Positions 1 to 25,263 of a stretch of DNA of 25,263 nt are shown here, piece by piece (within the stretch, counting starts at the first letter, position 1; every line of letters begins with the position of its first letter). The stretch is taken from positions 1 to 25,263 of the forward strand of contig JBBQSO010000079.1 of the NCBI GenBank assembly GCA_038213805.1, read 5' to 3'. The notes beneath the pieces are model-generated. The model ran no database searches and was not told the origin of the DNA. It saw nothing but the letters and a program-made list of their open reading frames with translations. This stretch comes from Planctomycetota bacterium (lineage in GTDB: Bacteria; Planctomycetota; UBA11346). A program made the translations under genes and the position numbers.

Positions 1-303
1 CTCAACCGCCAGAAGATCGCCGCCCTCGCCGGACTGGCGCCCTACGACCGCGCTTCGGGAACCCACGATGGGCGACGCGCAATCTACGGCGGCAGGAAGC
101 GCCTGCGACGTGCGCTCTACCTCGCTGCCCTCACCGCAACACGGGGCAGCAAGTGGCTCAAGCCAATCTATGAAAGACTCAAAAATGCCGGCAAGAGCCC
201 AAAGGTCGCACTCATAGCCTGCGCACGCAAGCTCCTCGTGCGGCTCAATGGCCTGGCTGCAAACCTGCTCCATCCACCCCAAACACTGCCTCAGGAGGCT
301 TGA
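1..303 (+). CDS. IS110-family transposase/recombinase, C-terminal (Tnp) part; 5'-truncated by the window edge
   Basis: Absent from the ORF track because it has no start. Frame +1 reads LNRQKIAALAGLAPYDRASGTHDGRRAIYGGRKRLRRALYLAAL...YERLKNAGKSPKVALIACARKLL...EA*, with TGA at 301-303. This fits the IS110/IS116/IS902 C-terminal domain (GLAP...SG catalytic-Ser motif, GG R..LR..LY.AA, GK..KVAL.A.ARKL). Codon usage (aaa, ata, aga) is less GC-skewed than in host genes. Confidence 0.95.
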   Translation, partial: LNRQKIAALAGLAPYDRASGTHDGRRAIYGGRKRLRRALYLAALTATRGSKWLKPIYERLKNAGKSPKVALIACARKLLVRLNGLAANLLHPPQTLPQEA

Positions 304-305
304 CT
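300..305 (+). promoter_or_regulatory. Outward-facing -35 hexamer TTGACT in the IS110 right end
   Basis: Near-consensus -35, 13 nt before the CT core. IS621-type elements carry the -35 in the right end and complete the promoter on circularisation. Confidence 0.65.
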
Positions 306-360
306 AACAACACAGTCACTCCTGTTTTATCCGTGATTCCCTCTCCAGCGGAGCGCACCA

Positions 361-1401
361 TCAATGCGGAAACGGCTGCGCCTCGCCTTCCTGAAGAGTC
401 AGGATCTCCACGCCCTTCTCGGTCACCAGGATGGTGTGCTCGAACTGCGCGCTGCGCCGCAGGTCGGCGGTCACCGCCGTCCAGTGGTCGTCCCACATCA
501 CGTGGTGCCAGTCGCCCTGGTTGATCATCGGCTCGATGGTGAAGACCATGCCCGGCAGGATGATGCCGCGCTGCGCCGGATCGTAATAGTGCGGCACCTG
601 CGGGTGCATGTGGAACTGCTCGCCAATGCCGTGGCCGACAAAAGCCTGGACCACGCTGAAGTGGTTGGCCTCGGCGTGCTCCTGGATGGCCTTGCCGATA
701 TCGCGGATCTGCCCGTTCGGACGCACTGCGCCGATGCCGCGCATCAAGCACTCGTGGGTGACCTGCACCAGGCGCCGCGATTCGGCGTCGACGTTGCCGA
801 CCAGCACGGTCTCGGAGAGGTCGCCGTGCATGCCGTCGAGGAAGATGGTGACATCGAGGTTGACGATGTCGCCGTCGCGCAGCTGGCGCGAGTCGGGGAT
901 GCCGTGGCAGATGACCTCGTTGACCGAGGTGCACAGGGATTTGGGATAACCGTGGTAGTTGAGCGTGCTCGGATAGCCGCCCTGGTCGATGTACGACTGG
1001 TGGGTGATGGCATCGATCTCGTCGGTGGTGATGCCCGGGCGCACCGCGCGCTTGGCCGCCTCGAGGGCGACCCGCGCCGCCGCGCAGGCGCGGCGCATGC
1101 GCGCGATCTGGTCAGCGTTCTTGACCACGGTGCGCTCGCGCGGCCCCGCCGGCCGCCCGGTCAGCGCGTAATCCGGTCGCGGGATGTGCGCCGGCACGGT
1201 CCGCTTCGGCGACAGCGCCCCCGGCCGCACCTGATCGATGCGCTCCCCGAGCGCCGGCTGCGCCGCGTGCGCCAGCACGGCGCCCCCTCCACCCCCCGCC
1301 TCGCCCTGCAGCTCCTTGAGCAGGTCGCGCGCCTGGTGGCACTTCTTGTACTTCTTGTCGCTCCCGCACCAGCAGGGGTCGTTGGGGCCCGGTTTCGTCA
1401 T
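361..1401 (-). CDS. map: Type I methionine aminopeptidase with N-terminal SEC-C Zn-binding motif
   Basis: Starts MTKPGPNDPCWCGSDKKYKKCH (SEC-C). MetAP motifs: CTSVNEVICHGIP, GDIVNLDVT, GHGIG..FH, FTIEPM, SAQFEHT. Start placed at ATG 1401 rather than the ORF-track start at 1455. Confidence 0.95.
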   Translation of the reverse strand: MTKPGPNDPCWCGSDKKYKKCHQARDLLKELQGEAGGGGGAVLAHAAQPALGERIDQVRPGALSPKRTVPAHIPRPDYALTGRPAGPRERTVVKNADQIARMRRACAAARVALEAAKRAVRPGITTDEIDAITHQSYIDQGGYPSTLNYHGYPKSLCTSVNEVICHGIPDSRQLRDGDIVNLDVTIFLDGMHGDLSETVLVGNVDAESRRLVQVTHECLMRGIGAVRPNGQIRDIGKAIQEHAEANHFSVVQAFVGHGIGEQFHMHPQVPHYYDPAQRGIILPGMVFTIEPMINQGDWHHVMWDDHWTAVTADLRRSAQFEHTILVTEKGVEILTLQEGEAQPFPH

Positions 1402-1409
1402 GCCCCTGC

Positions 1410-1437
1410 ACCGTAACACGTTGCCCGACCTGGACAA
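1410..1437 (-). promoter_or_regulatory. Candidate sigma70 promoter for map (leaderless or very short leader)
   Basis: Minus strand reads TTGTCC-16 nt-TACGGT with TGn before the -10, then 8 nt to ATG. No clear Shine-Dalgarno. Confidence 0.35.
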
Positions 1438-1520
1438 CCGCCCGGCCACCGGCATTCGTCACCACCTTCGCCAGCGTCTCCACCCCCCTAACCCACCCGA
1501 ATCCCCCGTCCCCCCAGTCC

Positions 1521-25032: not shown

Positions 25033-25044
25033 TCGCGACGGGGA

Positions 25045-25218
25045 ACGGATAAAACGGGAGACGCGGAGACGCGGAGGGAAGAGGAGGAGAGGTGAGGGGC
25101 AGGTCGCTTGGACGCGGGACGACGCTGAGTCCCTCACATCCGACGTCATCGCGAAGCATCGCGAAAAAATGTCCTCCAGGCTGGTCCATCCTCTTCCGAC
25201 CTCCGCGTCTCCGCGTCT
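25045..25218. repeat. REP-like inverted repeat built on the ACGCGGAG / CTCCGCGT octamer
   Basis: Perfect 19-bp arms AGACGCGGAGACGCGGAGG (25059-25077) and CCTCCGCGTCTCCGCGTCT (25200-25218), with inner extension GGAAGAGGA/TCCTCTTCC. The right arm stops abruptly at CT 25217-25218. Confidence 0.9.
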
Positions 25219-25263
25219 TGTAAGTTCTCTTCACCCACCCGCGAGGCGAAGTGGCAGCCTGGG
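25217..25263 (+). mobile_element. Probable left end of an IS110 copy (core CT, -10 box, start of bridge RNA); truncated by the window edge
   Basis: The repeat arm is interrupted at CT and followed by TG-TAAGTT, which sits 17 nt from the right-end TTGACT if the two ends are joined. A small hairpin follows. Confidence 0.65.
25233..25263 (+). ncRNA. Putative 5' start of an IS110 bridge RNA (partial)
   Basis: A at 25233 lies 7 nt after TAAGTT. Hairpin CCAC-c-CGC-gag-GCG-aa-GTGG at 25235-25254. The guide loops would lie beyond the window. Confidence 0.4.

Follow-up and report, generated by a model that had tools for sequence, protein, structure and literature searches.

The locus considered here raises the question of which mobile element ends within it and how that element finds its insertion site. 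The stretch analysed (hereafter the window) is 25,263 nucleotides long and constitutes the entire contig C79 of an assembly from a member of the Planctomycetota (genome G000; 5.5 Mb in 180 contigs, 69% G+C, 90% complete and 2.6% contaminated); contigs C138, C35, C81 and C53, referred to below, belong to the same assembly. Comparison of sequences makes it very probable that the window ends lie in two directly oriented copies (A and B) of a ~1.31-kb insertion sequence (IS) of the IS110 group, whose left end is predicted to encode a bridge RNA targeting a repeat of the host. A first-pass annotation had read an IS110 right junction at the start of the window, and this reading stands, window 1-320 being the right end of such an element (PF02371); it had overlooked a second junction, at which window 25217-25263 represents the start of a further, identically oriented copy, namely its left end.

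The starting point was a match between window 319-334 (CTCCTGTTTTATCCGT) and the minus strand at 25045-25060, which agree at 15 of 16 positions as originally noted. None of 100 dinucleotide-preserving shuffles of the window contained two matches at two or fewer mismatches. The similarity begins exactly at a CT dinucleotide, before which the IS side reads ACAGTCA-CT (312-320) and the repeat side TCCGCGT-CT (reverse complement of 25059-25067); the preceding base is A on the former and T on the latter, which bears out the earlier statement that the match stops at CT. A lone 15/16 pair within 25 kb is weak evidence, and it is the repeat family behind it that makes the observation solid: an nhmmer profile built from 71 seed copies identified 116 copies in the assembly. 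Three of these hits are on C79 and C138 (two left junctions and an intact unit at 25044-25095), and the short right halves at window 321 and on C81 fall outside the 116.

The consensus of this host repeat, ...GTCCTCCTCCGATCTCCGCGTCTCCGCGCCTCCTGTTCTATCCGG..., consists of tandem CTCCGCGN octamers, as the first-pass annotation had recognized, followed by CTCCTGTT, in a unit of ~55 nt; uninterrupted copies read ...CTCCGCGTCTCCGCG(T/C)CTCCTGTTYTATCCGG. Most copies (96 of 116) are arranged in 48 inverted '-+' doublets, which measure 140-263 nt and enclose spacers of 28-147 nt, and the 12 doublets sampled from these 48 fold into DNA hairpins with z scores of -3 to -16. The spacers are mostly unique, with only two pairs alike. 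The interiors of classical REPINs (hairpin-forming doublets of repetitive extragenic palindromic, or REP, sequences) and of miniature inverted-repeat transposable elements (MITEs) are conserved, unlike those of the doublets described here, for example window 25044-25218. REP/REPIN doublets are reportedly inverted and hairpin-forming and are said to serve as IS landing sites. The host repeat resembles them in being abundant, intergenic-looking, arranged mostly in hairpin-capable inverted doublets and used as an IS landing site, and differs from them in its ~55-nt unit of tandem octamers rather than a short palindrome, its unique spacers and its distance of more than 3 kb from RAYT-like genes. 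The earlier label REP-like holds as far as hairpin-forming inverted doublets are concerned, but no association with RAYT (REP-associated tyrosine transposase) genes was found: five Y1_Tnp hits (PF01797, RAYT-like) were identified in the genome, none within 3 kb of a repeat unit, in an assembly that is 90% complete and from which such a gene may be missing. For this reason we term the repeat, as judged from its sequence, only REPIN-like and not a proven REP.

Within the ~55-nt unit, the target site is found close to the outer end, where the last tandem CTCCGCGN octamers meet. In the window, repeat examples are located past the stop codons of an M24 peptidase gene and a HemN-like gene. The right half of an interrupted unit occupies 321-334 on the plus strand and comprises the right target (RT) CCTGT at 321-325 followed by TTTATCCGT, which fits the consensus ...CTCCTGTTYTATCCGG and complements the right target guide described below. 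At the opposite end, an intact, unoccupied unit forms the first doublet arm (25044-25095, minus strand; nhmmer E 9.4e-8), and the left part of the second arm (25183-25216, plus strand; nhmmer 25183-25218) is interrupted by copy B and ends in the left target (LT) TCCGCGT at 25210-25216, with another CTCCGCGT octamer ahead of it. The intact unit contains a potential target composed of TCCGCGT (25061-25067), CT (25059-25060) and CCCGT (25054-25058), with one mismatch to the right target guide. Across the genome, TCCGCG[CT]CTCCTGT occurs 42 times, and among uninterrupted copies TCCGCGC-CT-CCTGT is the commonest site variant (29), followed by TCCGCGT-CT-CCTGT (8) and others.

Five junctions of the element were identified in the assembly, three of them left (C138:7957, the end of C35 and window 25217) and two right (window 320 and C81:83). 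Left and right junctions have only CT in common, without any other target duplication, and CT bounds the element on both sides, at 319-320 (right junction of copy A) and at 25217-25218 (left junction of copy B, located by junction comparison), both on the plus strand, in agreement with the CT core proposed at first. With a slash marking the element boundary, two of the three left junctions (C138 and the window end) read TCCGCGT-CT/TGTAAG, the latter in full ...CCTCCGCGTCTCCGCGT-CT/TGTAAGTTCTC. Both right junctions read ACAGTCA-CT/CCTGT, with flanks CT-CCTGTT(T/C)TATCCG; that on C81 is ...ACAGTCACT/CCTGTTCTATCCGG. The expectation that collected copies would share TCCGCGT-CT on the left and CT-CCYGT on the right was thus borne out at both right junctions (CT-CCTGT) and at two of three left junctions, but not at C35, where the left flank is TCCCCCT-CT outside the repeat. 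Joining a left flank, one CT and a right flank reconstitutes an uninterrupted host repeat, so that intact repeat copies serve as paralogous empty sites.

The copies are closely similar. C138 carries the remainder of the element, and its end agrees with the element part at the start of the window at 99.6% identity over 278 nt; window 25217-25263 (47 nt, i.e., CT plus 45 nt) is 97.9% identical to C138:7957-8003; extending the comparison into 15 nt of host repeat (window 25202-25263 versus C138:7942-8003) gives 98.4%. Combined, these parts define an element of ~1311 bp counting both CTs, in the order CT core, 343-nt non-coding left end (C138:7957 to ATG), gene for a recombinase of ~317 amino acids (DEDD and Tnp domains), 17-nt right end past the stop codon (window 304-320) and CT core. 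A relative complete on one metagenomic contig (L104) has the same length. The long non-coding left end, the short right end and the absence of long terminal inverted repeats agree with the organization given for the IS110 group in PMC11208160. The window holds the 3' part of the recombinase gene of copy A (1-303, plus strand; last ~100 codons, TGA at 301-303; PF02371 E 3.1e-11), and the open frame on C138 extends over 308 amino acids (~317 with the window part; PF01548 7.9e-26, PF02371 3.4e-14). Among solved structures, the protein matches ISCro4 (PDB 9t56; E 2e-37) and IS621 (PDB 8wt6; E 2.2e-34). The motifs IGIDV, MEST and KTDPIDAR are conserved relative to ISCro4 and aligned with the DEDD positions (candidate residues D11, E54, D96 and D99 by count); a Ser is present in DRASG, in a region where the alignment is ambiguous, and is a candidate for the Tnp serine. 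In species-representative genomes, the nearest recombinase relatives, from many phyla, were at most 49% identical (best-segment tblastn) and were excluded from the flank analysis.

At the element ends, the left donor (LD) ACAGTCA forms the last 7 nt before the core (312-318, plus strand), compared with ACAGTAT in IS621; the latter, as quoted in the first-pass annotation, is correct, the IS621 donor ACAGTATCTTGTAT being printed in the PMC11208160 supplement. The donor of the present element, ACAGTCACTTGTAA (ACAGTCA-CT-TGTAA), agrees with it at 11 of 14 bases. Copy B contributes the first 45 nt of its left end (25219-25263, plus strand; TGTAAGTTCTCTTCACCC...), including the right donor TGTAAG and a -10-like TAAGTT, before the contig ends within the element. 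A -35-like hexamer, TTGACT (300-305, plus strand, read from the sequence), overlaps the stop codon 13 nt ahead of the core and would stand 17 nt from the left-end TAAGTT after circularization. TTGA(C/T/A)N is present 12-13 nt before the core in all 12 right ends available (11 relatives and the window's own). We infer that TTGACT-17 nt-TAAGTT would act as a junction promoter after circularization, such as is described for IS621 in PMC11208158.

The 343-nt left end, complete on C138, is predicted to encode an IS621-type bridge RNA of ~190 nt, in which a 5' hairpin is combined with target and donor loops. This RNA folds at -104 kcal/mol (z = -5.65 versus shuffles), and in an alignment of 15 left ends RNAalifold predicted 51 pairs, 17 of them with compensatory changes. 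By an independent count, 97.2% of cells were paired versus 90.4% in shuffles (none of 500 reached the observed value) and 32-46% with slid partners. On the opposite strand, the 5' hairpin (L001:424-453 = C138:8123-8152) is a perfect intrinsic-terminator-like stem followed by TTTTTT, and all 15 relatives share an unchanged A-run ahead of the hairpin; this hairpin might stop antisense read-through into the left end.

According to the IS621 rules, as given in PMC11208160 and PMC11208158, the left target guide (LTG) and left donor guide (LDG) have the top-strand sense of left target or donor plus core, and the right target guide (RTG) and right donor guide (RDG) are antisense to core plus right target or donor, with two handshake bases following RTG. 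The target loop of C138 can be read as ...GGUGGCGUUCG-UUCCGCGUCAU-[GAUCGCUCGCGCGAUCG]-U-ACAGGAG-UUUUGAACAC... and the donor loop as ...CCCGA-ACAGUCACC-[UGAACCGGGGGGUCACCCCCGUGUUCG]-CUUCUGCAAG-CC. RTG ACAGGAG is the exact complement of CT-CCTGT (7/7). LTG UCCGCGUC repeats the left target TCCGCGT-C in the same sense and would pair with the bottom strand; the LTG region (UUCCGCGUCA / UCCGCGUCA) agrees with LT plus core, TCCGCGT-CT, at 8 of 9 positions. The target originally proposed, TCCGCGT-CT-CCYGT, is thus upheld as a repeat target with matching guides, but the guide specifies CCTGT and not CCYGT. In the donor loop, LDG ACAGUCACC agrees with the right end ACAGTCA-CT at 8 of 9 positions, ACAGUCAC has the same sense as ACAGTCA-C, and RDG (C)UU..GCAAG can pair discontinuously with the left end CTTGTAAG (CTTGT..AA) with two bases looped out. 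The base after RTG, U in 15 of 15 sequences, can pair with donor position 7 (A) and not with target position 7, and therefore fits the handshake rule. The 5' part of LTG is complementary to RTG (helix 4, with compensatory changes in four of five predicted pairs); this relation between the target guides follows from the left and right targets being near-copies, namely junctions of tandem octamers in which position i resembles position i+8.

Relatives of the element make it possible to compare guides with flanks beyond this genome. A DNA search of 41 relatives' genomes identified elements 68-76% identical in three of them (G002, G008 and G013), a pattern scan of 48 family genomes returned nothing beyond the known G000, G008 and G013, and a metagenome scan with a 19-nt donor-loop pattern gave 20 loci, comprising 12 relatives (65-82% DNA identity) and eight chance hits. 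These relatives keep the element ends, CT/TGTAAGT in all 13 left ends seen and ...ACAGTCA-CT in all 11 right ends, which are then followed by quite different flanks, and their target guides differ. A right flank is available for 12 elements, our own and 11 from the metagenome scan, which carry eight distinct RTG sequences; in 11 of the 12 the reverse complement of RTG equals the core plus 5 nt at 7/7, the exception being L101 (5/7). At the five non-core positions, cognate pairs agree on average at 4.83 and cross pairs at 2.43, and only one of 124 cross pairs reaches 5/5. In this set of copies and flanks, a collection that the first-pass annotation had called for, guide and right flank covary, which supports RNA-guided targeting.

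The relatives' targets are likewise junctions of tandem octamers (nonamers in L101), for example CTTCGTGT-CTTCGTGC-CT/TCGTGG at L119. In seven of ten left flanks, the last 14 nt recur in inverted form (three or fewer mismatches) 41-163 nt upstream, and the insertion site therefore usually lies in the 3' arm of a hairpin. At L118, a run of TATCCGC heptamers on the right is mirrored by inverted (GCGGATA)n ~120 nt upstream on the left, forming a hairpin of short tandem repeats.

Three other explanations of these data were considered. The 15/16 match could be a chance resemblance beside an unrelated IS end, given that a near match may be expected when all 16-mers of a 25-kb stretch with 69% G+C are compared with one another (an estimate, not a computed value); the shuffles without a second match, the 116-copy family with matching guides and the junction of the same kind at the other end of the window leave this next to no probability. 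It is also very improbable that the 14 nt past 320 (CCTGTTTTATCCGT) are part of the element, with its right end near 334 and the likeness at 25045-25060 reflecting a solo IS end or a MITE. In favor of this, sequence shared beyond 320 had been named as what would count against the first proposal, and the C81 right junction does continue similarly for 14 nt (12/14), yet the two flanks are alike because both copies lie in the same host repeat. Moreover, CCTGTTTTATCCGT belongs to the 116-copy repeat, where it is preceded by CTCCGCG octamers and not by IS sequence, the host repeat has no similarity to the IS ends beyond CT, and the 11 related elements end in ...ACAGTCA-CT with flanks that differ and fit their own guides.

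Somewhat less remote, yet still very unlikely, is recognition of the repeat via protein-DNA or DNA-structure contacts such as the doublet hairpin, in which case the complementarity between left end and target would not direct insertion. The position of the target in one arm of a strong hairpin doublet, the inverted 14-nt copies upstream in seven of ten left flanks, and the target stem-loop reported to add a layer of specificity in ISPpu10 (10.64898/2026.03.19.712850) all speak for such recognition. It leaves unexplained, however, why guide and flank covary across eight RTG variants, and it sits poorly with the clear homology to IS621 and ISCro4. Structure might still act as a second layer atop RNA guidance, a view compatible with bridge-RNA targeting of the repeat.

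Several observations weigh against that preferred explanation. The evidence for LTG is weaker than that for RTG: in a fixed register, LTG matched LT at 7/7 in three of ten elements, 6/7 in two, 5/7 in two and only 1-2/7 in three, with a cognate mean of 4.8 versus 3.12 for cross pairs. Three of the ten need a one-base shift of the LTG register, which improves their match, and LTG reaches only 5/7 in the relatives in G008 and G013. Opposite the second core base, LTG and LDG carry A and C, not U, so that the first core base alone is covered; the IS621 RNA printed in the PMC11208160 supplement has the same gap in LDG and not in LTG. The base after RDG, a C, is unable to pair with target position 7, and pairing between these positions is not consistent across relatives, leaving a second handshake unsupported. 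A search of the element and its left end against Rfam 15 gave nothing but chance hits below threshold, with no family of bridge RNAs among them, which is why the bridge RNA was identified from our own alignment.

The C35 left junction (C35:49739-49754, locus L002), with only 5/7 agreement of TCCCCCT-CT to the guide, also counts on this side, and the copy looks like an off-target insertion. The ATG of a Cys-rich open reading frame follows 13 nt downstream of the insertion, which lies within a purine-rich Shine-Dalgarno-like stretch whose complement is TCCCCCT-CT. Pfam assigned no family to this reading frame, and an HNH identity considered for it was dropped on that ground. In addition, no copy was seen with both flanks, because the assembly breaks at every copy, and left and right junctions consequently could not be paired. 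At contig level, two public runs containing the stretch yielded no contig across the element, no empty allele and no circle junction.

An empty allele in a related genome, suggested at the outset as a check, was likewise not obtained in the strict sense, but the intact repeat copies of the host stand in as paralogous empty sites. In G001, G004 and G002, the orthologous site past the M24 peptidase gene consists of a short spacer devoid of repeat units, and in G008 it carries an intact diverged unit (...CTCTGCGTTCTCCTGTTAAAATTGCC). The neighboring gene at that site in the relatives maps to contig C53 of the present assembly, which ends in other repeats and not in an IS junction: its last ~210 nt comprise a tandem array of 14 CTGATGG heptamers and, after it, a perfect hairpin of ~44 nt, a further short-tandem-repeat element of this genome, and because C53 ends in this (CTGATGG)14 array and hairpin, the true empty allele was out of reach.

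That contig C79 starts inside the element is explained by the element being multicopy, and the assembly break points at these sites are thereby accounted for. In the same two public runs, the IS unitig had depths of 38.8 and 45.3 versus 7.5 and 9.2 for the flanking unitig, a ratio of ~5 that hints at about five copies and is not to be taken as a copy number. In run X2, one contig has the IS end and CCT up to window 323 and then a different sequence (ATATGGATGG...), a loose end that points to the element having inserted at another site in that community. The gene adjoining the right junction of copy A (window 364-1455, minus strand) encodes an M24 peptidase of the methionine-aminopeptidase type that bears a SEC-C zinc motif at its N terminus, and appears ordinary. 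The two same-orientation copies (window 1-320 and 25217-25263) bracket a 24.9-kb segment, which synteny with relatives argues to be chromosomal rather than a small circle, and which could be excised, duplicated or amplified, or inverted by recombination between them.

By every sequence-level criterion applied, the element is a member of the IS110-group bridge recombinases and would work like IS621. Similarities to the latter include the DEDD and Tnp recombinase, significantly similar to PDB 8wt6, the long left end with a predicted bridge RNA composed of 5' hairpin, target loop and donor loop, the CT core at both ends, the target within an intergenic-looking host repeat, and the placement of a -35-like hexamer in the right end with its -10-like counterpart in the left. 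They extend to the guides: RDG is discontinuous and ends in GCAAG, as the IS621 RDG ...AUUUGCAAG (PMC11208160 supplement) pairs likewise with its donor, LDG covers the first core base only, and the U after RTG is able to pair with donor position 7. In contrast to IS621, RTG has 7 nt (core plus five) instead of four, LTG covers LT and the first core base only, and the target guides are mutually complementary, which is not seen in the IS621 RNA printed in the PMC11208160 supplement. The target is TCCGCG(T/C)-CT-CCTGT here and ATCAGGC-CT-AC in wild-type IS621, as printed in PMC11208160, and the host belongs to the Planctomycetota rather than being Escherichia coli. By sequence, the best-scoring solved structure is nevertheless the ISCro4 transposase (PDB 9t56), over residues 6-296. 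ISPpu10 and ISPpu9 of Pseudomonas putida are IS110-family elements with REP targets, according to 10.64898/2026.03.19.712850 and PMC12288879; they share with the present element insertion in one conserved intergenic repeat with the target beside or inside a stem-loop-forming sequence, and differ in that the stem here arises from two ~55-nt units that are separated by unique spacers of 28-147 nt.

The sequences themselves show the anatomy, the junctions and the guide/flank complementarity with its covariation, and circle formation, promoter use, RNA expression and catalysis are extrapolated from IS621 by homology. In the mechanism proposed, the right end would be joined to the left end in an excised circle, the circle junction would create the donor site ACAGTCA-CT-TGTAAG together with the TTGACT-17 nt-TAAGTT promoter, and a recombinase-RNA complex would recombine the donor CT with the CT of TCCGCG(T/C)-CT-CCTGT. 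This element reveals no new mechanism; for IS110 elements, publications already describe REP-like targets, CT cores and concordance between natural guides and targets (PMC11208160). A literature search, which did not extend to ISfinder, yielded no description of the element or its target, and novelty is limited to the specificity TCCGCG(T/C)-CT-CCTGT, the host repeat family and the clade-wide targeting of tandem-octamer junctions with a self-complementary target loop, none of which turned up in that search.

Taken together, the data provide a well-documented natural example of bridge-RNA targeting outside the Proteobacteria, in one element family with at least eight natural target-guide variants, each beside DNA matching its guide. 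Such guide/target pairs are suited to testing the reach of the IS621 rules, including a 7-nt RTG, an 8-nt LTG and a self-complementary target loop. A broader possibility, which we regard as doubtful at present, is that a planctomycete IS110 clade (65-82% DNA identity to the present element) has specialized on (CTNNNNNN)n octamer boundaries in the 3' arms of doublets, with complementary guides as a gate, the hairpin as a second layer, and co-evolution of guides and repeats. If this were true, the complementary target guides could pair into a helix that keeps the target loop shut and is opened only by the correct DNA, and the doublet hairpin could be a second, structural layer of specificity, as reported for ISPpu10. 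The at least nine guide variants (eight with a right flank and CGCAAAG in G008), each fitting a lineage-specific octamer, would then record the co-evolution of guides with the host repeat.

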